A stretch of 64,000 bases of DNA from an uncultured Bacteroidales bacterium (GCA_963756885.1 CAVWPG010000011.1:510178-574177); one strand, 5' to 3'; numbered from the stretch's first letter, positions 25,102 to 45,889 are shown. Numbers and translations are program-made. The notes: generated by a model from the letters alone, not told the origin.

Positions 25102-25178
25102 GGCGTACGACTGGAATCAGTGAAGTTGATATCAGGCAGATCCAATTATTTTAGTCCAAAATAAATAAAATCTTTGAT

Positions 25179-26758: not shown

Positions 26759-26810
26759 TGTAATACAATTAGTTAAAAATGATAAGTTCTATATTGAATA
26801 TCACATATCA

Positions 26811-28231: not shown

Positions 28232-28638
28232 GGACAAAATGTAATGAAACCTGATAATCGCTCAGGTTTATGGTTTCAGGAGTGTTTTTGGTATTCAACC
28301 GGAGGGTGCTGGAAATAGCAGGCACTTCCGGTTTGATCACAGGATAGTCTCACTCTTTAGCGAAGGGTAGAGATCTGTCTGAAATCAGTATTTACCACAC
28401 AGGCGAGGGAATTTCTTTTTCACAGTATACTTTTTCCGGCTGTTGGAGCGGACTAATTATTTTGCTGAAGGAATAATATGCTTAATTTTTGACTGCACCA
28501 TGAGAGTATCAACTTGCAGATTCAGAGAACCAACATATCCTGCTTATAATTGGGGAAAGAATATAATATCTCCTTTTTTTTGATCTCCATACTGGCCGGA
28601 TTCGATCCGGGATCACGCTTATCTGCTATGCGGTTTTC

Positions 28639-29967: not shown

Positions 29968-30027
29968 TTTGATTTGAGTTTGCTTTGAGTCGTTGATTCA
30001 GGTTTGGCTGCCAGATATTTTATCATT

Positions 30028-31002
30028 TCAGTGAAGCAGATTGACAATTTCTGAGATTCCAAAATTGCCATCCAGGTTTTGGATTTCAATTTTACCATTT
30101 AACAGATCAAAAAAGAAATCACGGATCTTTCCCATTGAGAGTGATGCTGGTTCTCCATTTGAATCCAGCCCCAAATCATAAGTCATCAGAAGCTGAGAGC
30201 CCAGGCTTGCTGCAGTTAACAAGAAATGATTCTGAAATTTTTCAGTGTCCAGCAGATCTGCAGCCAATACCTTTCCTACCACGGTGTAACTTCTCAGGTT
30301 TTTCTGAGTTTCGTCGTTCGTTAATGTCGTTTTTACTTCATCTGTTTCAATGTTCATTTCTATTTTGCCGGAGTTTGTTGCCTGAGGCAAACCTCTGTAA
30401 AGAGAACCTAAGTCTGCTAAACTTAAATTATAAAATTTTGTACCAGGCAATGTTATTATTTTTTCGATAGAAAAGGCACTGGGCAAGAGTAACCAAACCA
30501 CTTGTGCAGCCTTTATTGATGGAGCATTAAATGTCCCTGCAACCGAATTGGTCAGATCAATGGTTTGAGTTGCAAATACGCCACCAATTACGACGCTGTT
30601 TTCAAGGATAACTTCGTCAGCATAAATACTGCCTGCAACAAATGAATTATAAAGTGTTACGGTTTTGGCGTTTATATCAGAATAAAAAATTATGTTGCAG
30701 TTTGGTGCTCTTGAAACAATGGAATTGGCAGAGCCAACGCACTTTTTAAACAGGATATTTCCACTTGCTTCACTATTTATGTAGAGTTCACTTTGGGCAA
30801 AAACTGCTCCCTGTATTTCTGAATTCCCCTGTTGAATTTCGAGTTTATGGGCGAATACAGGGCCTTCAATTATAGTGTTGCCTTGGATTGAAATTGTTCT
30901 GCTTAGTTCAGAATATTTCTCAGGCAAAATAGAGCCTTTAACCAGATTATCCTTAAGCTGGATATTCATTTCATTAAACCGAATTTCTTTTAGTTCTGTC
31001 AT
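30028..31002 (-). CDS. Operon gene 6: beta-helix-repeat protein (bactofilin-like N-terminal half) with an unassigned C-terminal domain
   Basis: Repeated short strand motifs read IQGNTIIEGPVFAHKLEIQQGNSEIQGAVFAQSELYINSEASGNILF...VAGSIYADEVILENSVVIGGVFATQTIDLTNSVAGTF. No TM helix. Confidence 0.45.
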   Translation of the reverse strand: MTELKEIRFNEMNIQLKDNLVKGSILPEKYSELSRTISIQGNTIIEGPVFAHKLEIQQGNSEIQGAVFAQSELYINSEASGNILFKKCVGSANSIVSRAPNCNIIFYSDINAKTVTLYNSFVAGSIYADEVILENSVVIGGVFATQTIDLTNSVAGTFNAPSIKAAQVVWLLLPSAFSIEKIITLPGTKFYNLSLADLGSLYRGLPQATNSGKIEMNIETDEVKTTLTNDETQKNLRSYTVVGKVLAADLLDTEKFQNHFLLTAASLGSQLLMTYDLGLDSNGEPASLSMGKIRDFFFDLLNGKIEIQNLDGNFGISEIVNLLH

Positions 31003-31012
31003 AATCTTTTCA

Positions 31013-32080
31013 TTAACTATTCATTATGCTCATTACATTTATTGAATCAAGGTCAGCAATTCTCTGAACCATTTCTTTTAACCTGACTGTATGTTGATCA
31101 TGGCCCGGGAAAGCCTTGTTCAATTCTGAATTAAAATGCATTTTCAGATTTGCAGTATAATCCGGCTTTATGGTATTCCAGGAAATTGTATTCGCAGAGA
31201 ATTGCTCATTAAGTGCAGACTTGATCAAATTATCCTGAAATGCAGTCGAAAATTCCGGAATATACAAATCCCTGCCAATTTGATTTTTTTCATTACGGGT
31301 TTCCATGAAACATACGGGAGAATACTGCCGGTCGGTAATGTTCTCATTCAGCATGCTTTTTTGGATAGTGTTATTTAGCTTCTTCTGTTGCCATAAAAAT
31401 ATCTTAGCTTTGTTGAGAGTATCCAAAGCTCTTTTCTTTGCGTAGGATACACTTATTTTTGACTGAAGTTCACCGCTTTCCCTGCCAAAAATTGCAACGG
31501 TATTTACCATGTCATTGCCTATAGTTCTTATAATATGGTCAGCCAATTCTTTTTGAAACAGGAAAGCAGGCTTGTCTAATTCATAAATTCTATTGTAAAG
31601 TTCCTTATTCAAGTCGTCAAAAATTTTATAATACCGGCTCGAAATTCTAAGGAAGTCTCCTTCCATTTGCTTTTTCTTCGAAAGGCAGGATTGGCACAGC
31701 TCTTTCAGGTGCATCAGATGAGCATCAATATTTTGTGAAAGCTCTGCAATCTGCTGACTTATTTCAGAGCGTATAAAGCCAAAGAATCCGCTGATAATTG
31801 TGTCTGCAACTTTTTCAGAGTTGCTGTCAATTGACTCTACCTGTGCAACTTCAGTTGCAACTACTGAACCTGTCAGCAAATTTACATGTGTATTGCACTG
31901 ATCAACGCTACTGTCAAAAGAGTCAGTATCCACATGTATATTGACATTAACAGGAACATATTCTGTATAATGAACTGTTGCTGAAGTAGTACCTCCATTT
32001 TGTGATGCAGGATAAGAGACATTTACAGTTTTTGAACCACTGACAGTTATTGTTTCACTATAACTTCTGGAATAGCTCAT
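31013..32080 (-). CDS. Operon gene 5: unknown-family protein, paralog of gene 4
   Basis: 355 aa. Shares with the 303-aa neighbour the block GFFGFIRSEISQQIAELSQNIDAHLMHL...SSRYYKIFDDLNKELYNRIYELDKP. No TM helix and no catalytic motif seen. Confidence 0.6.
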   Translation of the reverse strand: MSYSRSYSETITVSGSKTVNVSYPASQNGGTTSATVHYTEYVPVNVNIHVDTDSFDSSVDQCNTHVNLLTGSVVATEVAQVESIDSNSEKVADTIISGFFGFIRSEISQQIAELSQNIDAHLMHLKELCQSCLSKKKQMEGDFLRISSRYYKIFDDLNKELYNRIYELDKPAFLFQKELADHIIRTIGNDMVNTVAIFGRESGELQSKISVSYAKKRALDTLNKAKIFLWQQKKLNNTIQKSMLNENITDRQYSPVCFMETRNEKNQIGRDLYIPEFSTAFQDNLIKSALNEQFSANTISWNTIKPDYTANLKMHFNSELNKAFPGHDQHTVRLKEMVQRIADLDSINVMSIMNS

Positions 32081-32091
32081 ACGCTTATCAA

Positions 32092-33003
32092 TTATAGGGT
32101 TAGATAGCCAACAGACTGGAATAATTCCGTAGTTAGATTTCTTACTCTAAGCGGCTTGGAAGAAGAGGAGACGAGTTTGCTGAATTCGCTTATAACTTCC
32201 TGATCCGGAACAGATTTTTCTTTCCATTCAATTTTCTGTAAAAAATCTAAGGCAGAATTCCTGATAGCTGATTTTGAAAAATTATTCAATCCATCTTCAG
32301 GTACAATTATTTCATAGCTGTTATCAGCTTTATTCCTGTTGCAATCGCAAATTGCAATTGGTATGTAGACAGTTGCACTTACAGTAAATCTATCATCATT
32401 TATCAGTATCTGATCGGTAAGTTTCTTTTGATTAATCATTTCGAAGAGAAAACTTCCCATTGATTTTATAACATTCAAGCCACGATATTTTGTATTTGAA
32501 GCAATTATTTTCTGGCTTACCGATAATGATTCCAATTGTGTAACTGGTATTGTCGCAGTGAGGTATTTTGTCCGGTTTGACAGCTTGTCAATTTCTTTGA
32601 CAGCAAAGTCAATGGTGGGTTTATCAAGTTCAAATACTCTCAGTTTTAAATTGGCATTTAAACCATTGAATAATTTCATATACCTGCCGGAAATCATATT
32701 ATAATCTTTTTGCATACGATTTTTTATGCTTAGCAACGCATTTTTTTGCTGTACCAATTGCATTACATGAGAATCGACCTCGCTTTGAAGTTTTGCCATT
32801 TTTTGCGAGATCTGAGAACGAATCAAGGAATAAAACCCTTTATTCACATTGTTGCAGACATGATCTGCTGCTTTTTCTTCTGCCAGGATGACTGCTGTTT
32901 GCATAGCAACTACAGCAACGGTAGTTGCTTCAACATGTCGTGAAACACTTTTTATTTCTGTCGCCATTGGCGTTGTGTCTACAGTATAATTGAATGTTGC
33001 CAT
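32092..33003 (-). CDS. Operon gene 4: unknown-family protein, paralog of gene 5
   Basis: 303 aa. Carries GFYSLIRSQISQKMAKLQSEVDSHVMQL...SGRYMKLFNGLNANLKLRVFELDKP. About 34 of 75 aligned positions are identical to gene 5 by eye. Confidence 0.6.
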   Translation of the reverse strand: MATFNYTVDTTPMATEIKSVSRHVEATTVAVVAMQTAVILAEEKAADHVCNNVNKGFYSLIRSQISQKMAKLQSEVDSHVMQLVQQKNALLSIKNRMQKDYNMISGRYMKLFNGLNANLKLRVFELDKPTIDFAVKEIDKLSNRTKYLTATIPVTQLESLSVSQKIIASNTKYRGLNVIKSMGSFLFEMINQKKLTDQILINDDRFTVSATVYIPIAICDCNRNKADNSYEIIVPEDGLNNFSKSAIRNSALDFLQKIEWKEKSVPDQEVISEFSKLVSSSSKPLRVRNLTTELFQSVGYLTL

Positions 33004-33090
33004 GATCCTTAAAATTAGAACGGGTAAATAATCTTCACATTATGATATTTTAATCTGAAACTGTTACTTCACATATCTTCATTTCCGACA

Positions 33091-35382
33091 TTACAAATCA
33101 TCATCAGAAATATCTGTTTCCTCCTCATTATTCACTGAGCTATCCCTGTCAGAGTCAGACCTATTACCCTCATCTGCCTCATTTTGATCATCCTTGTCCA
33201 TCTCAGTTTTAGCCTTAATTTCAGGTACTTCATCATCAGGTTCTGATTCTTTATCTGAAACCTCTTCATAATTATCCTTCTGAATAGTATCCTCACCAAT
33301 TTCCGGTTCCTCAATTTCCAAATCTGGTTCTTTAATTGCAGCTTCATCTTTTTTGTCATAGTCGGGATTCTCTGCATCCATCACTTGCTCTTCACTTTCA
33401 GGGTTGGGTTTTACGTCAGGGTTTTCAATATTCTCCGGATCAGAAATCTCACCATTTGCTTTAATATCATTTTCATCAATATTTTCAGGGCTTCCCGCAG
33501 GTAAATCTTGCCCCATATTATTACCTTGTGCATCTTGATCCCCGTCAAGATCCGTCAGAGAGTTCTTTGCTATAACTGGCAGATTCAGGGATAAATGCTC
33601 ATAAGTGATCTCTTCAACGTTTGGGATCGGAGGAAGATCTGAAATTTTTGCAAAAAGCGGATTAACACCGATAAGTGGCTTTCTTCTGCTTTCCAGGTTA
33701 TTTGCTTCACTTGCTGCCACTGCTGTATCTTTTGAGTTCCCATCACGAAGCAATGCATCGTAATAGTCAATGTGTTCGAATTTCTCTGCTTTTAAATCAA
33801 TATCTTCCTTGAGTCTCTCCATAAAGTTTTCAAAATCGAGCTGGACATTTTGAAATTCTCTTGATTGCAATTCAAAGGCTGCAAAAACCTCAGCTGAATT
33901 TTGAGTGGCAGAAACAACTGTTGAATCAAGGGAACCGCCTGACTCAGCCATGCTGTCTTCAGTTTTTTTCAAGGAAGTCAGGGTATTATATGCTGCAACA
34001 TAGTCTCTCAGACTGGCCCTCATCAAATTTATCAGGTCAGCACTTTCGGAGCGGTTTCTTCCATAGAAGTCTTCAGTATCCTGATGCCATTTATTCAGGT
34101 AACTGATCTTTTGGTCCTTGATATGGTTATATATTTTAAGTCTTTCAATCCTTGTTTCATTCATAAGATTTTGAACAATTGGAGCAACGATTTCTTCATG
34201 TATCTGGTGAACTCCAAACGGGAAGTTTGTGCTGCTGCCGTCTTCGCCCGTCCACATTCCGGAGATTAGGTTAAATTTAACTTTTGAACTTTCCTTTAAC
34301 TGGAAGGGGACATATTCTGATGCCGATTCCCCATAATTGAAATCTTCATTTCTGATTCTTTCTATTTCTGATGCTTCAAGTACAGGAGAATAATGGTTAT
34401 ATGGAGATTTAAGAATTTTGTACAGGAGTTTGTTGGATTCGAAAATAATTTTATCTGTTGAAGCAACTTTTAAAGCAGATATTGCCTGAACTGAATTTGC
34501 CATTGTTATCATCAAGCCTCGCAGAACATCTTCAAATTGAGCAGTATCTCTTGACAATGAATCTTTGAGTTTGTTTAATTCCTGGAATTTGGAGATTTGA
34601 GTACTGTAATTATTTATATCGAATACCTCAAAAACCGGAGATTCTTTTGGAACCTCTGTCGTGGCAAACTCCTTTATAAAATTTAAATAACTGCTATTAT
34701 TTTCAACCAGAGGCAATTCAACAGAGATTACATCCAGATCATCCATGCAATAAGAAATTGTCCGTAAGGATCTTTCCAGTCTCCCAAAGTAATCGTGTTG
34801 ATTTAAGTGTTGCATTGAACGGGAATATTGTTGAGTTTCGATCTCTTCAATTTCTTCTGAACCCTCCACAATAGGGGCCTCATCAGATAACTTTTCCAAT
34901 TCAGAAATCGTCTTTATCAATAAATCGTTTTGTTTTGAAAGTTGTAGTTTTACCTCTGACTCACCTACCATACCGGTATGGTCAACAATGAAACTTTTAT
35001 TCTCATATTTAATCTGACTGGCAACCGGAACATATGCAATCCCCAGCTTACTGACCCTGTAGTCTCTGAATATCTCTTTATGCTGCTTTTTAAATACATC
35101 AATCCTTTCATCCAGCGATATGATTTTCTTTTTTAAACCATTCTCCTTGACTGTAAAATAAATAAAAGTGAATATTAGGATGCATAAGAACCATTTAAGG
35201 CGCCTGGTTTTTAAAAGGTCAGTATCCAAAATGGATAGTTCTTCCTTAAGTTTCGCAATCTCTTTTTCAATATGTTCTTCCTCGTGTACTATTTTTTCAG
35301 CCATTTGCACATAATAGTTGAATAATATCTTTGCCTGATCCTGGAAAAGATTGTTTGATTCAGGAGTAATTTTGCCTTTCAT
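33091..35382 (-). CDS. Operon gene 3: 763-aa protein with N-terminal coiled coil, one TM helix, a large unassigned domain and a roughly 170-aa Asp/Glu-rich tail
   Basis: EKEIAKLKEELSILDTDLLK is followed by WFLCILIFTFIYFTV (TM). The C-terminus runs from DLDGDQDAQ to NNEEETDISDDDL and is dominated by D/E/P/N. Confidence 0.6.
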   Translation of the reverse strand: MKGKITPESNNLFQDQAKILFNYYVQMAEKIVHEEEHIEKEIAKLKEELSILDTDLLKTRRLKWFLCILIFTFIYFTVKENGLKKKIISLDERIDVFKKQHKEIFRDYRVSKLGIAYVPVASQIKYENKSFIVDHTGMVGESEVKLQLSKQNDLLIKTISELEKLSDEAPIVEGSEEIEEIETQQYSRSMQHLNQHDYFGRLERSLRTISYCMDDLDVISVELPLVENNSSYLNFIKEFATTEVPKESPVFEVFDINNYSTQISKFQELNKLKDSLSRDTAQFEDVLRGLMITMANSVQAISALKVASTDKIIFESNKLLYKILKSPYNHYSPVLEASEIERIRNEDFNYGESASEYVPFQLKESSKVKFNLISGMWTGEDGSSTNFPFGVHQIHEEIVAPIVQNLMNETRIERLKIYNHIKDQKISYLNKWHQDTEDFYGRNRSESADLINLMRASLRDYVAAYNTLTSLKKTEDSMAESGGSLDSTVVSATQNSAEVFAAFELQSREFQNVQLDFENFMERLKEDIDLKAEKFEHIDYYDALLRDGNSKDTAVAASEANNLESRRKPLIGVNPLFAKISDLPPIPNVEEITYEHLSLNLPVIAKNSLTDLDGDQDAQGNNMGQDLPAGSPENIDENDIKANGEISDPENIENPDVKPNPESEEQVMDAENPDYDKKDEAAIKEPDLEIEEPEIGEDTIQKDNYEEVSDKESEPDDEVPEIKAKTEMDKDDQNEADEGNRSDSDRDSSVNNEEETDISDDDL

Positions 35383-35406
35383 AGTATTCCGGATTTATGA
35401 TTACTT

Positions 35407-36117
35407 TTAGTCTGAAAAAACCTGCTTACGTTCTTTACACGTCCTTTCACAATTTTTAATATTGTCCTGAATATTATCAATGTTTAGAGGAAGGTTAACA
35501 AAACAGTCATCTAACTTTCTCATTTCTTCAACGAACTGTTTTTCAAGTTCGGTTGCTCTGTTATTATTACATGGAGAAAGGAATCTGATATTTTCCTGTA
35601 AATTATTTATTCTTTGAATTATATCTTCCGGGATATCTGTCATCCTATCTAATTTTAACTGCAATTCCCTTGTTGTCTTTTTCATTTCATCAATTTTAAT
35701 CAGTATCTGTTGTTCTTCCTGATGAATCTCATGTACTTTTTCAGAAGAAGAAAATGCCAGGAACAGACCTGTAAGAAGAAGGAAAAGAAGAATCCCATGG
35801 ATAATCAATTGAGAGGTGAAAGAGATAGGATTGACGGTATTGAAAATAATCATTGCCCCAGCTCCGGTTAGCATATACAAGGTGGTAAAGGCCCATCTTA
35901 TCCCGATTGAGCCTATTTTTTTCTGTGGTTTGTCTTTTAGGTCAATCCATGGAATAAAGATGTCGAAAAAAGAAAAAATATAGATTAATGAAGTCACAGC
36001 AATATTAAGCTTAAGTATTTCAGGTTGAAGATTTTTCCCGAAATGAATCAAGCAGATGATTATCAATCCTTCCCCCAATAGAAAGAGTAACAGGGAAAAT
36101 ATTCTTTTAGCATTCAT
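35407..36117 (-). CDS. Operon gene 2: four-TM membrane protein with a C-terminal cytoplasmic coiled coil
   Basis: Hydrophobic helices at about aa 6-25, 37-56, 72-92 and 100-122. These are followed by EKVHEIHQEEQQILIKIDEMKKTTRELQLKLDRM and further heptad-like sequence. Confidence 0.6.
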   Translation of the reverse strand: MNAKRIFSLLLFLLGEGLIIICLIHFGKNLQPEILKLNIAVTSLIYIFSFFDIFIPWIDLKDKPQKKIGSIGIRWAFTTLYMLTGAGAMIIFNTVNPISFTSQLIIHGILLFLLLTGLFLAFSSSEKVHEIHQEEQQILIKIDEMKKTTRELQLKLDRMTDIPEDIIQRINNLQENIRFLSPCNNNRATELEKQFVEEMRKLDDCFVNLPLNIDNIQDNIKNCERTCKERKQVFSD

Positions 36118-36133
36118 TTTAGAGGTTTTTGAT

Positions 36134-37384
36134 TTATCGTTTTAAACCGCATTTTGGACAGAATTTAACGTTTGAGGCCAACGCTGTACCGCATCTGGTA
36201 CATTTATCATCTGCCTGCTGTTGCCCGCAATTACCGCAGAATGAGCTGCCAGGTGCAAGAGGAGAATTGCAATTTGAACATAGGCTAAGATCTCCTTGTA
36301 ATGTAGCACCGCAACTCACACATCGTTTTGCGTTTCTATCATTATCTGTACCGCACTTTGGACAGGCATCATACGGATCGCCGCAATGCGGGCAGAAGCG
36401 ATTGGTACTTGCAAATTTCCTTGAGCAATTTGAGCAATAAACTTCCCTGATCTGATTTGCCGGTTGAGTTGCGCCCCCTTGTGGGGACTGATTTGAGCCT
36501 CCAAACGAAGGCTGGGTGTATTGAGGTTGCAAAACACCTCCGGCGCCGCCCAAACCTCCTATCATATTGCTGGCTATTACAGCACCCAATATTCCGGAAT
36601 TATTGTTTGAGATGCCATCGATGGCATTATTAGCAGTACCAAATGCCTGCTCCTGTTGCCATGTATAACCTCCAATGGATTGGGCACTTTGTCTGGAAAT
36701 TGCATCCAATACCCTTCTTCCAACATCGGTAGAGTTATCGACTTCAATGCTTGTAATATAGAATTGTGTCAATTCAAGTCCGATATTTTCCCAGAAGGGG
36801 AGCATAATATTTTTTAAATGCTCTGAAATACTCTCAAGGTGTGCTGAAATCTGCTTTAACCCAATTCTGTTTTTTATCATGAATTGTAAAAGAGTCGATT
36901 TAGTCTTGGATGAAAACTCTCCAAAAAATTGATCAGTTAGGTCATTTTGATCAAATATATTTTTGGTTCCGACTATTTTGATAAGGAATCTTTCAGCATC
37001 GTTTATTTTTAACCCGTACCTGCCATTGGCCACAAGTGGAATTCCTGTATTGTAATCCGCATCATGAATATCCATTCTGTTTATAGCCCAATCAATATTG
37101 TAAGGTTGCAACTTATTCACAAACCATACTTCGGCTGTAAATGGATTTTTACCCCCGAAAGGGAGACCGTACAAGCTTCTTAACACCGGAAGATTTTCAG
37201 TATTAAGGGTATGTTTGCCCGGCCCAAATTTCCCAATGATTTGTCCTTTGGAAAATAATATTGCTTCTTGTGATTCCTGTACAATAAGCTGAGTAAACGT
37301 ACTGAGATTGGTCTCGGGATATCTGAAAGCATATATAGTTTGATTTCCCTGAGGTGACCAGTTGACCAGATCAATTATTGCCAT
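36134..37384 (-). CDS. Operon gene 1: SPFH/band-7-like (YdjI / COG4260-type) domain fused through a Gly/Gln-rich linker to four zinc ribbons
   Basis: The N-terminus IDLVNWSPQGNQTIYAFRYPETNLSTFTQLIVQESQEAILFSKGQIIGKFGPGKHTLNTENLPVL...AEVWFVNK matches the YdjI-type SPFH pattern. The linker is GGLGGAGGVLQPQYTQPSFGGSNQSPQGG. The C-terminus carries eight CxxC pairs (CSNC, CPHC, CPKC, CVSC, CSNC, CGNC, CTRC, CPKC). Confidence 0.75.
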   Translation of the reverse strand: MAIIDLVNWSPQGNQTIYAFRYPETNLSTFTQLIVQESQEAILFSKGQIIGKFGPGKHTLNTENLPVLRSLYGLPFGGKNPFTAEVWFVNKLQPYNIDWAINRMDIHDADYNTGIPLVANGRYGLKINDAERFLIKIVGTKNIFDQNDLTDQFFGEFSSKTKSTLLQFMIKNRIGLKQISAHLESISEHLKNIMLPFWENIGLELTQFYITSIEVDNSTDVGRRVLDAISRQSAQSIGGYTWQQEQAFGTANNAIDGISNNNSGILGAVIASNMIGGLGGAGGVLQPQYTQPSFGGSNQSPQGGATQPANQIREVYCSNCSRKFASTNRFCPHCGDPYDACPKCGTDNDRNAKRCVSCGATLQGDLSLCSNCNSPLAPGSSFCGNCGQQQADDKCTRCGTALASNVKFCPKCGLKR

Positions 37385-38135
37385 AACTAATTAATTAATC
37401 ATTTATATTTAAAATAAAAATCGCGTTTTTGGAATTGCAAGAAAGTGATTCCCTGGATTTTGAACGCTGCACTATTTGTAAAGATACAATCAGGTAAATT
37501 ATGTGTTTTATTAAAGCAAAACAGAAAATGCATTGAGCTAAAGCAAATCCTCCGAAATGCCTTATGGTATAATCAACCAACATATTTGCTATATTTCACC
37601 ATGAGATGACTCAATGTAAGTATTCAAATAATAAGTATTTATCTCCATTATAGATCGATCATGTAATTCCAGTCAATTTTAACCAGGATGTCCGGCTAAC
37701 GCAGGTAAATACTTTTTCGAAAACTTCAAACTTAGGTTGTAGATACTTTCTTTAAATTGAATTGCGGCGTTTTACTCAAAATTAAATAATGCAAAGCAAA
37801 GTTCAAGACTTCGGATAGGATAAAATATTAACAATCATTTTGTTAATAAATATTTGATTCAAGACCTTATTAGCCATCATATCTCTATAAAGTAAGGCTT
37901 CGTATGCATACATTTAAATATTGTAATAATCAATATTCCAGTAAATTAATCAAGCAGGATGATGATTTGGAAAAAGGTGTCTCATACATACTGTAAAATA
38001 GCGTGACTATAATAAATATGGCTGCAATAATTAAGCCTGTGTTGGATGGAGAGTATATGCATCCCGTCTACATGATTCATCAGATAACATTTATTTATCA
38101 AAATGTTTAGCAGATCGTACAGCAAAAGATCAAAG

Positions 38136-38207
38136 AAATATTTCGGCGAGGGTGACGCTGTGGGTAAAGCATTGGATATTCAGGTAGAGGGAAGTTTTGA
38201 AACCAGA
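38136..38207 (+). pseudogene. Short remnant of an FtsX/MacB-type permease gene
   Basis: KKYFGEGDAVGKALDIQVEGSFET matches KKYFGNGDAVGKTFDVQVEGSYET of the 60748-63141 product. DNA identity is roughly 80 percent by eye, and no flanking coding continuity remains. Confidence 0.5.
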
Positions 38208-38267
38208 TTCAGGCGATTGTTGTGTTTTTTGTTCTTTCGGAACAATAAAGTGTCCCCCGGTTCAGGA

Positions 38268-38672
38268 GTTTGGCAAGTGTACTTGTTGAAGAACCGGGCC
38301 CCGCTTTGGTGGAATGCGCCCGCCGAAGGCAATCTCTTGCTGATTTAACCATTTATCCGTTTAGTAATGAAAAGCTATACAAGTTATAATTTCAACCGGC
38401 AGGGCATCTTATGTGGCATAGACCTGTACGGGATTATGACCCAAAAATCTTTCCTGGGTAAAATCTGGTTGCTTTTATTACCTGCTTTGCCAATTGATGT
38501 TTATTTTTGCCAGATTTATTTTCAGAAATATGCAAAATCAGGGTAATCAGACTTCAGCTGCAATAGATAGCGATATAGCAGGGAAAACAGTATTTTATAT
38601 ATTATTATATATTAGCTTTTATCATCTCTTTAACGACACTATTCAGTATATTATCTCTTATATATATGGCAT
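38268..38672 (+). repeat. Direct repeat copy A: duplicate of the fsr upstream region plus the first ~48 codons (mutated, truncated)
   Basis: Aligns base-for-base with 45485-45889 at an offset of 7217. There is 1 mismatch in the first 276 nt and at least 17 substitutions in the last 129 nt. The track ORF 38494-38688 is the mutated fragment (FYILLYISFYHLF versus FSILLSISFSHLL). Confidence 0.9.
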
Positions 38673-38689
38673 AAGATGGTTGGTTTGAA

Positions 38690-38927
38690 CACTTTCGGCA
38701 ATGAAGATTTGCATTTTTATATTTATCTTAAATTCATGAGTTTAACACTCATTTTAAATGGTCAGTTTGTACTGGCAGGAGGTGGTTACAGCTTACGTAT
38801 AAACCATAATCATGATGTGGCAGAAAATACTGCAATAATGTACTCGCTTCTTGGGTGTTGTGCTGAAACAGATGTAAATCCCAGAGAAGTGGCTGACAGA
38901 GGTGATAATAAGAATACCTTATTATAA
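38690..38927 (+). mobile_element. IS66-family transposase C-terminal remnant
   Basis: The ORF reads ...SLTLILNGQFVLAGGG...AENTAIMYSLLGCCAETDVNPRE. This resembles the IS66 TnpC C-terminal pattern RPLxLGRKNxLFAGS...AxxAAxxYSLxxTxKxNGxxP. It is truncated and lacks the catalytic part. Confidence 0.55.
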
Positions 38928-39379
38928 GAACGATTACAGCCTTGATATGGCAGTATCTCCTGCCTCATAACTGGAAGGGAGCATGTGATACTCCAGAAAA
39001 CTCTAATGGAAATCCAATAATTAATGGATATCATTGGAAAAAGTTAAACTGTCCAATCATTTTCTAAAGAATTTCAAAGAACTGCAACAAAGTTGTACTG
39101 GAAATTAAACATGGCAAGATAACTATTTATGAGCTAACTATGTAAGAGTTGGATAAGAGATGTCTAGGGAGAAAAGGATGATGGCATAAGGTTAATAGCT
39201 TAAGGAAGAGGTAAGGAGATTTTCTGGGATATGAAATAGGCTGAGAACTGCTTAAAGATTTGGATTTCTTTATACTTTCAGCTTAAAGATTAAAAAAGGG
39301 CAGCAGGTTGAAGGGGAACAATGATCTCTTTTTTATCTTTAGGGGCGAATAATTATTTTTAAATTAAAACTGCTACATC

Positions 39380-39466
39380 ATGAGTAATTTTAAGGAACTG
39401 AAAGTCTGGCAGAAAAGCATGAAGGCAGAACAGGTAGTTTTAAAATATATCTCTAATTATATTTTC
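39380..39466 (+). pseudogene. Possible N-terminal stub of a four-helix-bundle (23S rRNA-intervening-sequence-type) protein
   Basis: MSNFKELKVWQKSMKAEQV resembles the FKDLKVWQKA start of that family, but the ORF stops after 28 aa. Confidence 0.35.
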
Positions 39467-39484
39467 TGATTAATATATATCAAT

Positions 39485-42400
39485 ATGTTTAGTGTTAAGG
39501 TTATTATAGATTTTGTAATTAATAACTTCCAAATTAGTCTTTCTTTCAATTTGAAAAGTATGTTTATAATTTGCTTTTTAATTCTTTCAATCTTCTCCTC
39601 TTCAATAAGCATCTATGCTCAAAATTACAATGTAAAGATCTTTACAACTAATGACGGATTAGCAAATAATAATGTCAGGGCAATAGCTGAAGATAGTTCT
39701 GGATTTCTTTGGATAGGTATCTGGGATGGATTAAGTAGGTTTGATGGACATGAGTTCAGAAACTACTTTCATGTAACTGATGATTCTATCTCTCTTTTGT
39801 ATTTTACAATCAGAAAGCTCTGTGTGGATTGTGAAAATAATCTTTGGATTTTCACGGAAAAGAGGTGAGTAGTTTTATTTAACAGGAATGCAGAAAATTT
39901 CAAACTAGTAAAAGAAATTAATGGCATGTCTTTGGAAGACGATATAGACATATGCGTAGATGAGAATGGTTATTTTTGGATAATAGATCAGAATGGATTG
40001 TACAGACACGAGCTTAAAGCAGATAAATATGAGAAATTAAGGATACTTCGCTCTGACGGATACAAATTAAATCTTGATGAAGCTTCTGCCTGGATATAGT
40101 CATTGATAATAAGAAGTTGTGGATTGCAAGCATGTAGTATGTGAAAGAATTTACTCTTGGTAATGGATTAGTTACATTAGAAAAAAGTTTTTCTCTTGTC
40201 AGAAAATATTACAGGGTTATCTATTTTGATCATATTGAATGGTTTAGATTCTTTCAATCAGAATAAGGAGAAAAATGGGTACTTTCAAATGTTGGACTTT
40301 TTAAATTCAAAGAAGAGTCTGCAATATTAGAAGAATTCAATGGGGAAACTGAGCTTAAAGACTTAAAGAACAGGAATAGAATTGTCTGGGGTAAGATGAG
40401 TAATGGTATTTTCTTTTATTCTACTGAGAACTAGGAACTCATACACGTTCAGTCAGAAATCTTACAATTGCTAATTTCAATGATGTGTGCAAACTAGAAT
40501 TATATTTGGCTCTCTAACGTATCAAATGATGGAGTTTTGCTAGGGTTATATAGAGTGGTATTTTCACTAAAATTCTTCACAAATACCTTTATAGAAACAT
40601 CTAATTCAAAACAGATAGCAGTTTACTCTATAGCTCAGGATATAAACAGAGATATTTGGGTAGGAGTCAGGGGGAACAATCATATAATTAAAATAAATAA
40701 ATCAGGAGGGATTAAAGGCATAGATTTTTTAGATCAGGATTTCTATAGCAAATCAGGTTATATCAGATCATTGATTACTGTTCAGGATGGCATCTGGGTA
40801 GGATATTACATGGGTATGTTACAATTTTATGATTACAAAACAGGTCAATTTGTTGATCATCATATCGGATTTTTCACTTTTAGGGCAATATCTCTAAATA
40901 ATGAGAATAATATAATTATTGGCATCACAGGCAAACTATTACTTTATAACTCTCGTAACAGTAAGCTCAAAACACTATGGGTACAACAAGAAAAGGCACT
41001 TCTATCTATAAGGTATATTATGACGCTTCTGGAGTCATATGGGCAGGGATGTCAGACAGTAAACTTCTTAAATACACTATTAAATAAGGAGATTAACATG
41101 TATATAAAATAAATAATGATAATTGTAATATAGAAGACATACAAATAGATGACAACGGTGAATTGTGGTTGGCTCTTCTTGGAGGTGGTGTCTGCAGGTA
41201 TAATATAGATACAGGAGTAACTAAATATTATACTACTTCATCAGGTTTATCTAATAATACAACTTACTGTATATTAAAAGATAAATCAGGTGGAATTTGG
41301 GTATCAACCAATAATGGGATATCATAATAAACTCTAAAACGGGGTTAATAAGAAACTTTAATCAAACTGATGGTCTTTTAATCTCGGAATTTAATTACAG
41401 TGCAAGTTATGCAAACAGCAACGGTGAATTTTTCTTTGGAGGGATGGGGGGGTTTGATAGATTATATCTTGATAGTATTGAAAACGCCATAACGGAAACC
41501 ATAAAATACAAGGTTCTATTAACAGATTTCAGTGTATCAGGGGAAAGAAAGGTGCTTACAAAAGCACTCAATGATTCAGATACAATAACACTTGCTAAGG
41601 GAGAGACCAATTTTCAGCTTTCTTTTTCATCTAGCGATTTTCTAAATTCTGATAAAACACATTTCAGATACATGTTAAGCTATATAAATCAGAACTGGAT
41701 TGAGACTGACTCACATGTAAGGAGTGTTAACTTTTACAACCTCAAACAGGGTAGCTATTTCTTTGAAATTCAAGTAACTAATTTAAATGGAGAATGGACA
41801 GCAGATAAAAAGATAGTTTTCAATATTAAGCCTTTCTTCTATCAGACATTGTTATTTCATATTTCAGCTCTGTTGTTTATCATTTTAGTTTTTGTCGGCA
41901 TTATTGTTTTATATATCAGGCAGTTTAAACAAAAAGAGAAGCAAAAACAAGATACTCTTAAACTACAGTCTCTCCGTGGTCAGATGAATGCTCATTTTAT
42001 TTTCAACTCGCTAAATTCTATTAATTACTTTATTTCCAATAATGATAAATTGTCCGCTAACCGGTATATAGCTGATTTTTCACGATTAATCAGGTCTATA
42101 CTTTCGAATTTTGGTAAAGATTATATTACATTTAAGAACGAAGTTGACTCAATAAAGGATTATGTAAATATTGAATATTTGAGATTTGGAGATAAATTCG
42201 ATTTTGAGGTTATTGTAGATCTGTCTAATTATAATTCTGATTTTGAAATATTTACAGGCTTAGTTTAGCTATTTATAGAAAATGCTATCTGGCATGGAGT
42301 GAGAGCTCTGGAATCACGAAAAGGGATTATTAAAATTTATTTTTATTGTGTTGGAACAAATAGGATAAAATGCTCTGTTGAGGATAACGGAATTGGATGA

Positions 42401-42600
42401 GATGATTCGCTTAACAGTAAAACTGATCATGATAATCATAAATCAAGAGGTATCGATATTGTTAATGAAAGGTTACAGATAATAAGCAAATTAAGGGGAG
42501 TTAACTATGCTCTCGAAATATCTGATCTTTACTATGATAAGGTAGATACCGGAACTAAGGTTGAAGTTGATATATCTGTAAAATGGATAAAAAGGAGTAT
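39485..42600 (+). pseudogene. Decayed sensor kinase: Reg_prop/Y_Y_Y beta-propeller sensor plus LytS-type His_kinase and HATPase, with many frameshifts and in-frame stops
   Basis: Recognisable pieces are TNDGLANNNVRAIAEDSSGFLWIGIWDGLSRFDGHEFRNY (Reg_prop), GELWLALLGGGVCRYNIDTGVTKYYTTSSGLSNNTTYCILKDKSGGIWVSTNNGIS, a TM segment, LRGQMNAHFIFNSLNSINYFI (His_kinase) and LFIENAIWHGV...VEDNGIG (HATPase). These lie in at least four frames, and TAG, TGA and TAA all occur in-frame. Confidence 0.75.
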
Positions 42601-42603
42601 AAA

Positions 42604-43346
42604 ATGATAAGGGCAATTGTTATTGATGATGAAAAACTATATAGTGAAGTCATATGCAATTATTTGAAAGAGTATTGTAGTGATGTGCAGGTTATTAATA
42701 CAGCTTCATCTGTTAAGGCAGGCTATACTATTATTAAAAGATTTAAGCCTGATCTTGTTTTTCTAGACATTGAACTTGGTGAGGGTACAGGTTTCGACCT
42801 GCTAAGAATGTTTGATATGATAACATTTAAAATAATTTTTGTAACGGCATTTTCAGAACATGCAATGAAAGCATTCAGGGTTAATGCTATAGATTATTTG
42901 CTAAAAACAGTTAAAATTGATGAATTGAAAGATGCAGTAGAAAGAGTAAAAGTAACCAGATGGGGATACGATTATCAGGATAAATAAGAACTTTCATTAA
43001 AAGTATATCTCTAAAAACATCAGGTGAGCTAAAGCTTATAATTTCTCACCTAAAAGGATATGATATTTTAAAAGTGAACGAAATTATAATGTGAAAAGCT
43101 GATGGGTATTGCACAGAATTTTTTCTTACAGGCAAGAGAGTGGTCATCAGCGCAAAAAATCTGAAACAATACGAAACTTTTCTTCTAGGACAATTCTTCT
43201 TTAGGTCCCATAACTCGTACCTTATTAATTTAAATCACATTTGCAGCTACACGAAGCAAGGAGTTATTGATCTGACTGAAGGAAGAAAAGCTAGCCTTTT
43301 AGATCAAAACAGAAATAAATTAATACAAATACTCAAGGCCAGATAA
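42604..43346 (+). pseudogene. LytTR-family response regulator, disrupted
   Basis: The receiver is intact (MIRAIVIDDE...PDLVFLDIELGEGTGFD...FVTAF). The LytTR domain continues in another frame (ILKVNEIIM*KADGYCTEFFLTGKRVVISAKNLKQYE...FFFRSHNSYLINLNHI) with a TGA where the family has Cys. Confidence 0.7.
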
Positions 43347-43496
43347 TAATATTGTGAATTTCTGAAAACCTTAAGTTATAGGTTGTTTTAGGGGAGTCAT
43401 TAGATTATTTATACAGTATATTAGTTTAACAATAGATTCATGTCTGGAATGGTTAGTTTTCATGTGTCAATTTACTAATTAACCTAAACTTGTGTT

Positions 43497-44600
43497 ATGA
43501 AAACAAAAATCACCTTTTAGATTGTTTTTTTTAGTATTATTTTAACTATATTCAGTTGTACTAAAGAGTATAATATTAATACTCTAACAATATCAACTTC
43601 AGACGTAAAGGATATAGATACTACTTCTGCCACAATTGGTGGAAATATAGTCTCTGATACTGGCACATCAATATCGGAACATGGTGTATTTTGGGGCACT
43701 TTAAACAACTTTGAAAATAATGGAACTAAACTGATAATAGGTAACGGGTCAGGCGAGTTTTCCTATACTTTAACTGGACTTTCTCCAAGCACAACATATT
43801 TTGTTAAAGCGTATGCTATAAGCAATATTGGCACAGTATATGGTACTCAGGTAAGTTTTACTACGATTTCTGAAAGAATAATGTTTATAGAAAATTATTC
43901 CAAGTTTTTAGAAATCTCTGTTACTGCGGGTCAACCAGTAGAAATCACAGTCTCAAATTCAATTTTCTCTCAGGACATATCTCTAGCTTACAATGATCCA
44001 ATGTTATTAGGAATATTTGGTATTTCAAATGGGCAGGATGGGTCTGAATTTGTTGGCAAATTATTTAAAGGAACAAACTATTATAATTCAGATTCTCAGA
44101 CCTGGAGTTTCGTCTCAAATTAGAATTCTGATAAAATTTGGGTGGCAGCTTTTGGTATGGATTTAGCTTCAAATACGCAAGGAAAATTTGATTTAACAGT
44201 TAATGGCACACTCTATGAGATATTGCCAAATAATATTATATTTCTTGAAAATATAAAAGAAGCAGAAAAACTTACATATGATGGGTCATCAGTTTCATGT
44301 GAAATATCAAATTCTATTGTTTTTCGGATTCAGGAGATGAATGTAAGGAAGATGCTATATTATTAGCAATGTTAGGAGTTTCAAACGGGCAGGACGGTTC
44401 TGAACTGATAGGTGAGGTATTTAAAGGAACGAATTATTATAATTCCTTAAAACAGATCTGGAATTTTACTTCAAATACAAGCATTCAGAATTTGTGGGCA
44501 ATTCCTGTTGGAATAAAGTTATATCAAATTTAACAAGGGAATTTGAGCTTAACATAAATAATGTTTACTATGTAATCACTCCTTGAGGTGAGATTTTAAA
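43497..44600 (+). pseudogene. Decayed lipoprotein with a fibronectin-like repeat domain and an internal duplication
   Basis: MKTKITF*IVFFSIILTIFSC has an in-frame TAG at codon 8. It is followed by DTTSATIGGNIVSDTGTSISEHGVFWG...LSPSTTYFVKAYAISNIGTVYGTQVSFTT, the same domain type as the N-terminus of 54133-55449. GISNGQDGSEFVGKLFKGTNYYNSDSQTWSFVSN is repeated as GVSNGQDGSELIGEVFKGTNYYNSLKQIWNFTSN, with stops and frameshifts. Confidence 0.5.
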
Positions 44601-45445
44601 TTTCTTGAATAATTTGAATAATAAAAGACAAGTTGAGGGTTTACCTGGAGCATATGCATGTGAATGTAGCAAATATGACTTGTATAGAATGGTTTCAGCT
44701 ATAATCTTCTAATTTGACTGCATATGCTTGGAACGTAGAGCCACTTCAGTTAAAACAGGACTGGGGACTAAAGGGGAACAGTGTTCCCTTTTTTTATTTA
44801 TGGACCTATCTCTGTTTCCTGATTTTGTTTCCCGGTAAGCATCTGATAAATCACATCTAATTTATATAGCATGGTGGGAAAAACGGTCAAAATGACAACC
44901 TAAGATTGGAGCAAATGGACAACTCTCTTTAGTATTGCTTTTTTATCATGATTTATTAGGCTCGAATGCTTAATGTAGAGGGTATATAAGAATACCTATC
45001 ATGTATGTCTAACAATTTACTTATTATGTATATACTACTTGAAAAGTATACCACCTTCTCGCTGAAAAGTATACCTATTTTGATTTTTCGAGGGTTGTAG
45101 TAATAGATAAATTCTATAATAACTAAATTGAGCACAAAACCAATAAGATATGAATCTTAAGTAATGTATTGTGCGGCTCTTATATACAAATCAGTTTCTG
45201 TTAATCATTAGCTATTCTTGTTGGTTAAAACCACAACGCACTGACTTTTAAAAACAGGATCATTTTTTCGGTTAAAATCTGCCTCTTTTTCTCAGAAACC
45301 TGGTTGAACTCTGTCTCAAAAAGAAAACAAATACATTTTAATTCAATCAATTATCATTGCAGATGTATTTTGAAAATGCCTAACCGGAACCCATTTTAAG
45401 ATATTTCTCAAAGTCATATGCTATATACTTATCTGTAAATGGTAT

Positions 45446-45583
45446 TACTACTGTCCGGCTAAGGTTTGAGATTCTGAGCGAAGCGTTTGGCAAGTGTACT
45501 TGTTGAAGAACCGGGCCCCGCTTTGGTGGAATGCGCCCGCCGAAGGCAATCTCTTGCTGATTTAACCATTTATCCGTTTAGTA
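45446..45583. mobile_element. Short (138 bp) member of the same MITE-like family, inverted orientation
   Basis: TACTACTGTCCGGCTAAGGTTTGAGATTCTGAGCGAAGCG matches the right arm of copy 2. The end GCAATCTCTTGCTGATTTAACCATTTATCCGTTTAGTA matches the reverse complement of the left arm. A left-truncated duplicate sits at 38268-38366. Confidence 0.55.
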
Positions 45584-45889
45584 ATGAAAAGCTATACAAG
45601 TTATAATTTCAACCCGCAGGGCATCTTATGTGGCATAGACCTGTACGGGATTATGACCCAAAAATCTTTCCTGGGTAAAATCTGGTTGCTTTTATTACCT
45701 GCTTTGCCAATTGATGTTTATTTTTGCCAGATTTATTTTCAGAAATATGCAAAATCAGGGCAATCAGACTTCAGCCGCAATAGCCAGCGATATAGCAGGG
45801 AAAACAGTATTTTCCATATTATTATCCATTAGCTTTTCCCATCTCCTTAACGACACCATTCAGTCCATTATCCCTTCCATATATCCTGT
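45485..45889 (+). repeat. Direct repeat copy B (functional fsr promoter region and 5' coding end)
   Basis: See copy A at 38268-38672. Confidence 0.9.

Follow-up and report, generated by a model that had tools for sequence, protein, structure and literature searches.

Between two copies of a direct repeat, the DNA of an uncultured Bacteroidales bacterium analysed here (a stretch of 64,000 nucleotides, hereafter the window) carries a block of broken genes, and the question that this locus raises is how an entire set of genes came to be ruined there. The initial annotation had taken it for an old insertion or duplication junction, the cargo of which had been left to decay; the duplication and the dead genes stand up to our analysis, while the slow decay does not.

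The duplicated fsr promoter and the genes behind it

The two copies of the repeat (Table 1) align without gaps at an offset of 7217 over 400 nt. The repeat and its offset had been recognized before, at a length of 405 bp, which has to be shortened since the junction of copy A in intact alleles of the locus runs from ...ATATAT into GGCAT and thus reveals the final 5 nt as chance matches. As had been claimed, the repeat holds the promoter and the 5' end of fsr (its first 46 codons) and only the distal fsr copy is intact; the product of the latter, a full-length MFS_1 protein, has 591 confirmed relatives, the closest of them 86-91% identical and found in Bacteroidales MAGs, although the name fsr is only the label given in the initial annotation and the function is putative. 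The TAnnTTTG box and the ATG are conserved in contigs L001-L003, L086 and L090. Given the distance between box and start site that we assume for this promoter type, transcription from copy A is predicted to start at about 38513-38516, with the fsr ATG at 38530. Over their first 276 nt the two copies differ at a single position, and over the last 124 nt at 17, where without exception (17/17) a C of the intact fsr copy has given way in copy A to T (11) or to A (6). Copy B and copy A of the intact allele, when compared with each other, show one mismatch in 400 nt. The scrap of an FtsX permease reported just upstream is likewise genuine, as the segment that it matches falls within the FtsX gene at 60748-63189 of the window.

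Table 1. Features of the locus, in positions of the whole window.
Feature	Position	Strand	Remarks
FtsX/MacB permease scrap	38131-38203	+	just 5' of copy A; 84-87% DNA identity to 62609-62681
Repeat copy A	38268-38667	+	~170 nt lineage-specific upstream DNA, fsr promoter, fsr codons 1-46 (truncated)
Bacteroidetes-type -7 promoter box TATTTTTG (TAnnTTTG), copy A	38502-38509	+	motif search
Hypermutated tract	38544-45304	+	268 window-private changes, 226 at + strand cytosines
IS66-family transposase C-terminal remnant	38780-39110	+	PF13817 E=0.005 on intact allele
Pseudogene, propeller/Y_Y_Y LytS-type histidine kinase (1041 aa when intact)	39485-42607	+	Pfam; intact in L081, L083, L085
Pseudogene, LytTR response regulator (254 aa when intact)	42583-43346	+	Pfam
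Pseudogene, Fn3-like protein (363 aa when intact)	43497-44586	+	internal 95-nt repeat at 43995, 44351
Terminator-like hairpin followed by T run	44770-44792	+	3' of last cargo gene
Repeat copy B	45485-45884	+	unmutated; runs on into intact fsr
Intact fsr-type MFS transporter, 406 aa	45747-46967	+	PF07690 E=2e-42

The cargo had been described as an IS66 remnant followed by a sensor kinase and a LytTR regulator, both full of stops and frameshifts, and the counts agree with this: the kinase pseudogene carries nine premature stops and three frameshifts (C/A deletions), the regulator one of each, and the gene of the Fn3-like protein two of each. Reg_prop, Y_Y_Y and His_kinase domains and pieces of Response_reg and LytTR were detected in the fragments of the window, all of them broken; a His_kinase (PF06580) sensor followed by Response_reg and LytTR, found both in these fragments and in the intact alleles, identifies a LytS/LytTR two-component system. 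The IS66 remnant, of which only the last ~100 codons are left, is dead in all alleles. Its match to PF13817 lies under the family cut-off, and a phmmer search recovered 136 relatives, some of them full-length at 492-568 aa, with which it aligns along the conserved tail ...YSLLGCC...DVNPREWLT...LLPHNWK that assigns it to IS66.

Comparison with related assemblies, a check that the initial annotation had proposed, recovered the locus from three other public contigs (L081/L084, ENA ERZ25039463; L083, ERZ25039539; L085, Logan ERR11523651) with the block present and with the kinase, the regulator and the Fn3-like protein intact. Copy A followed by the block is found in the two nanopore-style assemblies among these (L081/L084 and L083), and L085 holds most of the block. 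The flanks of these contigs differ from the window by 0.04-0.12%, i.e., they are about 99.9% identical to it. The block amounts to an ordinary two-component locus that was functional until recently and lies behind a dead IS66 tail; it comprises the kinase, the LytTR regulator and the Fn3-like protein. The mutated allele, on the other hand, occurs in a single public contig, and among the public assemblies searched the broken ORFs are confined to the 603,253-bp source contig. Of the changed residues in the kinase, an outgroup (P0001) shares 52 with the intact allele and three with the window; judged by these residues, the window is the derived state. In its IS66 remnant the window retains ~12 residues of the family consensus that are gone from all three contigs with the intact allele. 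This shows its block to be a sister of the intact alleles rather than their direct descendant, and gives it the look of a DNA lineage that is real and separate.

Strand, context and extent of the changes

Changes private to the window were called from a three-way alignment of the window, L081 and L083. The 6.9 kb block contains 268 of them and the 9.0 kb flank four (p=7e-92), an 88-fold difference in density, and the flanking transcribed genes are free of such damage. The changes affect one base on one strand: 226 of the 1134 + strand cytosines are altered vs 10 of the 1261 guanines (p=5e-65), and only ~5 changes are found at A. At cytosines, C>A (107, or 47%) and C>T (102) are joined by 10 C>G changes and seven C deletions. 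In the step from the intact allele to the window the number of CC dinucleotides on the + strand falls from 207 to 70, while GG stays at 334 (334-336 for the block of the window). From 39 to 43 kb, the 1-kb bins are down to 2-7 CC per kb as compared with a window average of ~42, and no other bin of the window has fewer than 15 CC or GG. This depletion of CC had not been mentioned in the initial annotation, which had described the block as more AT-rich than its surroundings from inspection by eye. The latter impression is confirmed by windowed GC (29-33% in the block vs 37-46% in the flanks); the block of the intact allele is itself at 34.4% GC, and the damage accounts for only ~2.7 GC points of the AT-richness. 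GC skew reaches +0.17 for the whole block and up to +0.33 in 500-nt windows.

The probability of a change depends on the neighbouring bases, with hit rates of 72% for CCG, 71% for CCC, 50% for TCC, 49% for TCG and 48% for CCA and of only 2-5% for ACA, GCA, ACT and GCT (2% for the first two). The neighbours also govern the choice between A and T, and the new base tends to make a TpA step: the 3' C of CC turns mostly into T (75 T vs 23 A), and C>A clusters at TCG, at CCG and, within CC, at the 5' C. Within a given trinucleotide, hits are stochastic (~55%) and a wider context adds no predictive power. A single hit suffices to abolish the CC context, and yet double hits (28/160) are as frequent as expected if both cytosines were changed independently (27.5), which indicates mutation in a single pass. 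Since the IS66 remnant makes the block of the window a sister allele, the notion of one episode rests on this statistic and not on genealogy.

The tract has a sharp 5' edge, as none of the 15 susceptible sites in 38268-38543 is changed and 30 of the following 47 are (p ~2e-7), and its first change lies no more than ~30 nt past the predicted transcription start of the duplicated promoter, on the non-template strand. Toward the 3' end the proportion of susceptible sites changed declines (64, 78, 48, 47, 42 and 33%), and no change is found beyond 45304. Changes go on at 33% for 500 nt beyond the terminator-like hairpin, which weakens a purely transcriptional explanation.

Possible origins of the tract

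We postulate, with a probability of about 0.45, that a single bout of damage to the cytosines of an exposed single strand ruined the block, with error-prone bypass fixing the changes. This reading takes up what we directly observe, namely the comparison of alleles, the spectrum, strand bias and context dependence of the changes, the edge at the predicted start, the gradient and the single pass; the finding of the mutated allele in a single public contig and the freedom of the flanking transcribed genes from such damage speak against it. The + strand (coding, non-template) of ~6.8 kb would have been single-stranded for some time, possibly as the strand displaced by transcription or by an R-loop from the duplicated fsr promoter, or else within a long single-strand gap, the complementary strand of which would have been refilled from the 45.3-kb side toward 38.5 kb. 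Exposed cytosines, chiefly those in CC, TC and CG contexts, may then have been N3-alkylated, lost by base excision, or deaminated by an enzyme with subsequent excision of the uracil; bypass of these lesions would have produced C>T, C>A, few C>G and single-C deletions, and the changes would be heritable rather than technical. Clusters of changed cytosines on one strand, such as the 226 C vs 10 G within 6.8 kb, are expected of a deaminase acting on single-stranded DNA, but such an enzyme should yield C>T with transversions in the minority, whereas C>A makes up 47% here. To our knowledge, no deaminase or mutagen has a signature with equal C>A and C>T and a neighbour-dependent choice between them. 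Within the 64-kb window no gene for a deaminase, a reverse transcriptase or an error-prone polymerase was found (for reverse transcriptase, ORFs of at least 150 aa were scanned). As regards the lesions, 3-methylcytosine in single-stranded DNA is known to give C to A, G or T changes (PMC8610418).

The main alternative, somewhat less probable in our view, is that the pattern is a technical artefact of nanopore-only metagenome assembly. A single aberrant long read, or a few of them, could have bridged repeat, block and repeat and supplied the sequence of the block, normal reads having been drawn to an intact companion contig so that the aberrant stretch was never polished; alternatively, modified or damaged cytosines of one strand could have been basecalled as A, T or nothing, in which case the "mutations" would not be heritable. 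The confinement of the allele to one contig would fit, and so would the fact that both intact-allele contigs end right at the return to copy B (45468 and 45484), which suggests that the locus troubles assemblers. Moreover, L083 has seven flank SNPs and a patch at 44.8-45.3 kb in common with the window and carries errors more densely in its flanks than in its block, and it thus resembles a companion contig competing for reads, while the context-dependent A or T, the skipped Cs and some neighbouring miscalls resemble the basecalling of a non-standard base. The related assemblies look like Flye/Medaka output from nanopore reads only; comparable projects have used Flye and one Medaka round without short-read polishing (PMC12313526), and for R10.4.1 assemblies modification-induced, strand-specific errors at C or G sites are documented (PMC11610603). 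Like the changes described here, those miscalls fall on one strand and reach the assembly, but they are sparse, tied to methylation motifs and genome-wide, with at most hundreds per genome, whereas the 226 changes of the block hit ~20% of all Cs in one 6.8-kb patch and none in the 9 kb of flank. A poor read would also give general noise and indels, and yet G, A and the lengths of homopolymers are nearly error-free (1/155 runs of at least 4 nt changed); reads of the unaffected - strand should rescue a two-strand consensus. The stochastic hits within each trinucleotide and the coincidence of the sharp edge with the predicted transcription start argue against an artefact as well, and noise cannot make the ancestral residues of the IS66 remnant.

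Mutagenic copying, in which one strand would have been resynthesized once with low fidelity wherever a G:C pair was needed, seems to us improbable. It could have taken the form of R-loop-primed DNA synthesis under dCTP depletion, or of reverse transcription of a transcript initiated at the promoter, the cDNA then recombining into the chromosome. Such a process would fit a tract that is confined to one strand, sets in where the transcript is predicted to begin and leaves G, A and T untouched, and it would also fit the statistics of a single pass and the heavy toll on C runs, as if two scarce nucleotides had been needed consecutively; the best coverage near the 5' end would reflect copies all running off at the transcript start. 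However, the ORFs scanned in the window include no reverse transcriptase gene, about half of the changes could arise only through mispairs of the pyrimidine:pyrimidine or purine:purine kind, which polymerases seldom make, 6.8 kb far exceeds the known tracts of mutagenic retrohoming, and copying leaves unexplained why this locus alone is affected.

We consider it very improbable that the block was recombined in from a more distant lineage, in which it had long been a pseudogene subject to that lineage's mutation bias. Tract ends like those of recombination within otherwise identical DNA would agree with an import, as would an IS66 remnant that marks a sister allele rather than a descendant of an L083-type block; by its flank SNPs the window goes with L083, so that the flank does not share the history of the block. 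Nevertheless, ordinary divergence alters C and G of a strand alike, and not in a ratio of 226 to 10, the divergence at bases other than C is only ~0.4% outside the IS66 remnant, and the independence of the CC double hits speaks against stepwise accumulation.

Slow decay of an old junction by neutral mutation is hardly credible. It would account for dead genes and an AT-rich block, and the IS66 remnant does mark an old rearrangement, but the genes are found intact elsewhere between flanks that match those of the window to at least 99.9%, and gradual decay, which would also have to reach 88 times the density of the flank, yields neither a one-strand bias, nor a context dependence, nor a sharp 5' edge, nor a fading toward the 3' end. 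Recoding by an alternative genetic code or editing, which has nothing beyond the in-frame stops in its favour, can be dismissed, since the intact homologues have sense codons in place of the stops, each of the three stop codons (TAG, TAA and TGA) is represented along with seven frameshifting deletions, and the flanking genes use the standard code; the test for recoding laid out in the initial annotation thus speaks against it.

Comparison with known hypermutation systems

If the tract was indeed caused by damage to exposed cytosines, it resembles APOBEC kataegis and the damage done to resected DNA in yeast by sulfite or alkylation; in yeast, APOBEC3G or sulfite leaves substitutions at the cytosines of whichever strand forms the single-stranded overhang (PMC3521656). 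In each case dense one-strand C substitutions extend over kilobases, arise in one episode and inactivate several genes. The yeast clusters consist of C>T and C>G in TC or CC contexts set by the enzyme, whereas here C>A equals C>T, C>G is rare and CG is also changed; furthermore, in contrast to the yeast and APOBEC clusters, we deal with a bacterium in nature. APOBEC3G acting on HIV-1 prefers CC, makes only C>U and leaves a density graded by the time spent single-stranded. The tract shares with it the CC preference, the 3' C turning mostly into T, the graded density and the lethal damage to coding capacity, but half of the changes are C>A and there is no retroviral replication cycle. Somatic hypermutation by AID covers 1-2 kb, targets WRC motifs on both strands and proceeds in many rounds, and uracil excision can give transversions. 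As in AID-driven or transcription-associated mutagenesis, the tract starts just 3' of a predicted promoter, thins out farther away from it and affects the non-template strand; unlike AID targets, it is 6.8 kb long, was mutated in a single pass, favours CC, TC and CG contexts and passes a terminator-like hairpin.

A bacterial source of clustered C changes in survivors is offered by toxins such as DddA and SsdA, bacterial deaminase toxins being known to mutagenize surviving cells (PMC7901873). DddA targets 5'-TC in double-stranded DNA and leaves C:G>T:A changes on both strands, while SsdA acts on single-stranded DNA (PMC7901873, PMC12494967) with little context preference; neither accounts for C>A or for the confinement to a single locus. 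Diversity-generating retroelements likewise achieve a near-saturating substitution of one base on one strand in a single copying step, but they mutate adenines and need a reverse transcriptase and template and variable repeats of ~100-150 nt, whereas here cytosines are targeted over 6.8 kb and genes are destroyed. A retroelement of this type was rejected as a candidate, given the changed bases (C in 226/268, A in only ~5) and the lack of a reverse transcriptase domain among the ORFs scanned in the window. Fungal RIP also links dense, C-directed mutation to a duplication, makes TpA and silences genes. RIP, however, produces only C>T, at CpA and in both repeat copies, whereas here the changes fall on the unique DNA between the repeats, which themselves stay mostly free of them, and half of the changes are C>A; a RIP-like process was rejected on the basis of 107 C>A vs 102 C>T, hit rates of 2% at ACA and GCA, and the lack of mutations in copy B and in the first 276 nt of copy A.

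Going further, one may speculate, although we regard this as unlikely, that Bacteroidales cells can naturally suffer cytosine hypermutation that runs through a whole transcription unit in a single episode, on one strand, and that is set off where a rearrangement has duplicated a promoter. Such a process would parallel kataegis or RIP in a bacterium, with a new signature, C>A and C>T being equal at CC, TC and CG and making TpA, and it would have silenced a three-gene locus in one step.

The intact alleles have in common a cluster of N>T changes of their own at 38838-39114, just 3' of the same promoter. Should natural hypermutation of this kind exist, the cluster would point to the same hypermutable zone a second time and independently.

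Intact sister alleles of the block

All the genes between the two repeat copies are broken in the window, as the initial annotation had claimed: the LytS-type kinase carries nine premature stops and three frameshifts, the LytTR regulator one of each, and the Fn3-like protein two of each. Recoding is ruled out, since TAG, TAA and TGA are all present as premature stops. An exact-sequence look-up of the flanking SPFH/zinc-ribbon protein led us to an intact allele on a 27.5-kb contig, L081 (ENA ERZ25039463), which spans positions 26134-45468 of the window. On it the propeller/Y_Y_Y/His_kinase sensor (1041 aa) and the Fn3-like protein (363 aa) are complete, and the LytTR response regulator is called at 247 aa, as against 254 aa in other gene calls. 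Two further contigs likewise have the intact kinase, L083 (ENA ERZ25039539) and L085 (Logan ERR11523651), the latter with 2 mismatches to L081 over 6281 nt. The broken reading frames occur solely on the 603,253-bp source contig of the window, a record present in both NCBI and ENA, and exact-protein look-ups with these frames, with fsr and with the 763-aa flank protein returned no record beyond it; hence, the mutated allele has been seen only once. Searches of JGI metagenomes with a 48-mer from the block and a 33-mer from the repeat gave 0 matches each.

When homologues of the intact kinase were sought by a word-indexed search, only relatives of at most 75% identity came up, and these served as outgroups. 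At 52 changed residues they have the residue of the intact allele and at 3 that of the window, and thus the window represents the derived state. L083 is the closest background to the window, since the two have seven SNPs of the flanks in common, as well as a divergent patch of intergenic sequence at 44.8-45.3 kb. Within this patch about 30 differences of all kinds, including indels, separate L081 from the window and L083, which share it; this is ordinary strain-level or recombinational variation within the block.

Spectrum and extent of the mutated tract

With L081 and L083 jointly as the reference, 4 window-private changes were found in 9.0 kb of flank (0.04%) and 268 in 6.9 kb of the block (3.9%). 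The latter comprise C>A (107), C>T (102), C>G (10), C deletions (7), G>A (9), T>A or T>G (15) and a remainder of 18 (T>C, changes at A, G>T and other indels), so that 226 of 1134 cytosines but 10 of 1261 guanines were changed (p=5e-65). The proportion changed was 72% in the CCG context, 71% in CCC, 50% in TCC, 49% in TCG and 48% in CCA, as against 2-5% in ACA, GCA, ACT and GCT; overall, about 55% of the sites in susceptible trinucleotides were changed, and wider context had no additional predictive power. The replacement base depended on the neighbours (65 A versus 14 T after a 5' T, 75 T versus 23 A after a 5' C, and 41 T versus 11 A before A), and hence TpA steps arise wherever possible. Neighbour copying, neighbour complement and dislocation were considered as substitution rules, and none fits the context table. 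Judged by their signatures, UV, cisplatin, 8-oxoguanine and O6-alkylguanine were each rejected as the sole cause because of the mixture of C>A and C>T; the distribution over both cytosines of CC also misfits.

The AT-richness of the block, initially judged by eye, was borne out by computation (29-33% GC versus 37-46% around). Its plus strand holds 70 CC versus 334-336 GG dinucleotides, and the CC count drops to 2-7 per kb at 39-43 kb (window average about 42); nothing close to this asymmetry is seen in the remaining 1-kb bins of the 64-kb window. The strongest ordinary strand-composition outlier, which covers a DUF6600 gene, is far weaker than the block, and its skew is probably a coding-strand property.

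The left edge of the tract is sharp: none of the 15 susceptible sites at 38268-38543 is changed (p ~2e-7), and the last of them (38511) still precedes the predicted transcription start. On the right the boundary is soft, since just five susceptible sites are left between the final change and copy B; the tract continues past a terminator-like hairpin. Double changes affect 28 of 160 CC dinucleotides, with 27.5 expected under independence, although either single change abolishes the CC context. Hence, the context must have been read from the original sequence, which points to one pass and not to stepwise accumulation. Given these one-strand, context-dependent changes, along with the intact sister alleles, the proposal of an insertion or duplication junction with decaying cargo holds for the duplication, which the alignment of the repeat supports, but not for the decay.

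Coordinates of features in the window
Feature	Position	Strand	Remark
-7 box, copy A	38502		perfect match to Bacteroidetes -7 box TATTTTTG; in conserved part of repeat
-7 box, copy B	45719		as in copy A
Predicted transcription start, copy A	~38513-38516		from the spacing to the -7 box that we take to apply
fsr ATG, copy A	38530
fsr ATG, copy B	45747
First change of tract	38544
Tract segment	38.5-39.5 kb		64% of susceptible sites changed
Tract segment	39.5-41 kb		78%
Tract segment	41-42.5 kb		48%
Tract segment	42.5-44 kb		47%
Tract segment	44-44.8 kb		42%
Tract segment	44.8-45.5 kb		33%
Final change of tract	45304
IS66 remnant	38838-39114
Direct repeat within Fn3-like gene	43995-44089 / 44351-44445		95 nt, 78% identity, spacing 356 nt
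Terminator-like hairpin	44770-44792
Divergent intergenic patch	44822-45263		shared by window and L083
Strand-composition outlier	26001-27000	- (gene)	C 256, G 164; CC 82, GG 38
Dispersed ~45-nt element (CCCGCCGAAGGCAATCTCTTGCTGATTTAACCATTTATCCGTTTAGTA)	38321-38368		inside repeat
Further copy of element	25177-25214	-	87-92% identity (both further copies)
Further copy of element	16889-16934	-
tRNA gene	63913-63987	-	sole Rfam match of window

Origin of the changes

The best-supported account is cytosine damage on single-stranded DNA followed by error-prone copying, in which both the lesion type and the bypass step are putative. Cytosines would have been damaged while their strand was single-stranded and then copied in an error-prone manner, which would account for the restriction to one strand, the almost unchanged G and A, the single-C deletions, the single-pass statistic and the saw-tooth profile. 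Two geometries would fit. The non-template strand could have been displaced by transcription or an R-loop starting at the duplicated promoter, so that the tract would begin sharply at the transcription start and thin out further away; or a long gap in the minus strand could have been refilled from its right-hand 3' end, so that the left end would be exposed longest and would stop abruptly where the old strand takes over again. In yeast, APOBEC3G or sulfite produces clusters on single-stranded DNA that affect cytosines only (PMC3521656), 3-methylcytosine within single-stranded DNA leads to C to A/G/T changes (PMC8610418), and bacterial deaminase toxins mutagenise survivors (PMC7901873, PMC12494967); however, none of these three systems reproduces the spectrum of the window. 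No gene for a relevant enzyme lies in the 64-kb window.

The main rival, a serious possibility though less probable than not, is that the tract would be an artefact of a nanopore-only assembly. The names of contigs in related assemblies follow Flye style, the closest MAGs originate from a Danish long-read soil project that used Nanopore only, Flye --meta and one Medaka round (PMC12313526), and it is known that modified bases can cause strand-specific miscalls that persist into R10.4.1 assemblies (PMC11610603). Moreover, two independent long-read contigs with the intact block stop on the return to copy B, L081 at 45468, 17 nt before its first base, and L083 at 45484, exactly at it. A 400-nt repeat is not expected to break a long-read assembly; hence, the locus is possibly heterogeneous in the population and may include an excised circle, block-less alleles or the 7,217-nt unit in tandem. 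One aberrant read bridging the locus could in that case have determined how the main contig was assembled. The ends of Logan contigs (38317, 38513 and 44787) were considered as graph forks of a second allele and rejected, since the offsets mismatch k=31 and coverage gaps explain the ends equally well. In L083, positions 1-8500 (29.5-38 kb of the window) contain flank genes split by many small indels, with the SPFH gene in pieces of 245 and 161 aa and the 763-aa gene cut to 551 aa, while the block is much cleaner; this would fit a low-coverage companion contig competing for reads. Evidence against an artefact comes from the clean homopolymers (1 of 155 runs changed), the near absence of changes at G and A, the stochastic occurrence of changes within a given context, the match of the tract edge to the predicted transcription start and the ancestral residues in the IS66 remnant.

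In this remnant the polarity between the window and the intact-allele contigs is reversed for non-C changes. A word-indexed search with the IS66 peptide gave only self-matches, and the remnant was aligned with 23 relatives from a full HMMER search. The window retains the family-consensus residues IMYSLLG, NPRE-WLTE, LLPHNWK and SNGNP and an unbroken frame into ...GYHWKKLNCPIIF, like the IS66 relative P0148, whereas L081, L083 and L085 have in common the derived states IL, V, KK, Q, NYL and FIVNS. These three contigs carry about 14 derived changes, mostly N>T (A>T 3, G>T 3, C>T 2), and a 1-nt deletion at 38987. Hence, the window block is a sister of the intact alleles and not a miscopy of one, and since sequencing noise could not restore family-consensus residues, the alignment favours a real, separate DNA lineage. 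The N>T changes of the intact alleles would represent either a second biased cluster, lying within 600 nt 3' of the duplicated promoter, or, alternatively, local gene conversion from another IS66 copy.

If real, the tract belongs to a known kind of event, the strand-coordinated cytosine hypermutation cluster, with an unfamiliar signature and in a natural bacterial population. It would be a kilobase-scale, one-strand event in a bacterial chromosome whose unmutated sister alleles are still in the environment, offering 226 events of known ancestral state as a clean spectrum, a defined start beside a promoter and a gradient reporting strand exposure. It would further indicate an activity directed at cytosines with a signature so far undescribed, and show that bacterial genes can vanish in a single burst instead of by slow decay, so that the age of a pseudogene could not simply be read from the number of its lesions. 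If it is an artefact, a public MAG contains a 6.8-kb stretch at 4% systematic error, which turned three good genes into "pseudogenes", and a per-kb scan of CC versus GG would detect similar stretches in other long-read assemblies.

The duplicated fsr promoter

Alignment confirmed a gap-free direct repeat at an offset of 7217 nt, and the duplication thus stands; its length is, however, 400 nt according to the intact allele, the remaining 5 of the 405 bp first reported being chance matches. Copy A thus occupies 38268-38667 and copy B 45485-45884. The repeat consists of about 170 nt that are lineage-specific, about 90 nt conserved 5' of fsr in relatives, and fsr codons 1-46. Copies A and B differ at 18 positions, 1 in the first 276 nt and 17 in the last 124 nt, and at all of these 17 the C of the intact fsr copy has given way to T or A in copy A. 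The FtsX scrap reported upstream of copy A was likewise recovered.

In a 90-93% identical relative, L090 (ENA ERZ25039462, region 7986-8894), DUF5916 neighbours fsr, which is also the arrangement in the window, but a UbiE-type methyltransferase lies 5' of fsr. Homology to the window ends at 45656, and hence only the lineage of the window has the block and the left 170 nt of the repeat. The contigs with fsr or DUF5916 that were compared (L086-L091, L090 among them) belong to different species or strains at 85-93% identity and lack the block, their homology 5' of fsr breaking off at 45656-45690. Among species-representative genomes, the nearest fsr matches were Bacteroidales MAGs, 86-91% identical and without flank synteny.

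An Rfam scan of the whole window matched a tRNA alone, and thus no known RNA element within the repeat. The dispersed element inside the repeat, which has two more copies on the opposite strand, has no Rfam match. The internal direct repeat of the Fn3-like gene reflects repeated protein modules. A Rikenellaceae MAG (L007) carries two tandem full-length fsr copies (2049-3328 and 4862-6142), which indicates that duplication at fsr recurs in the group; such a duplication may be the origin of the 5' fragment in the window.
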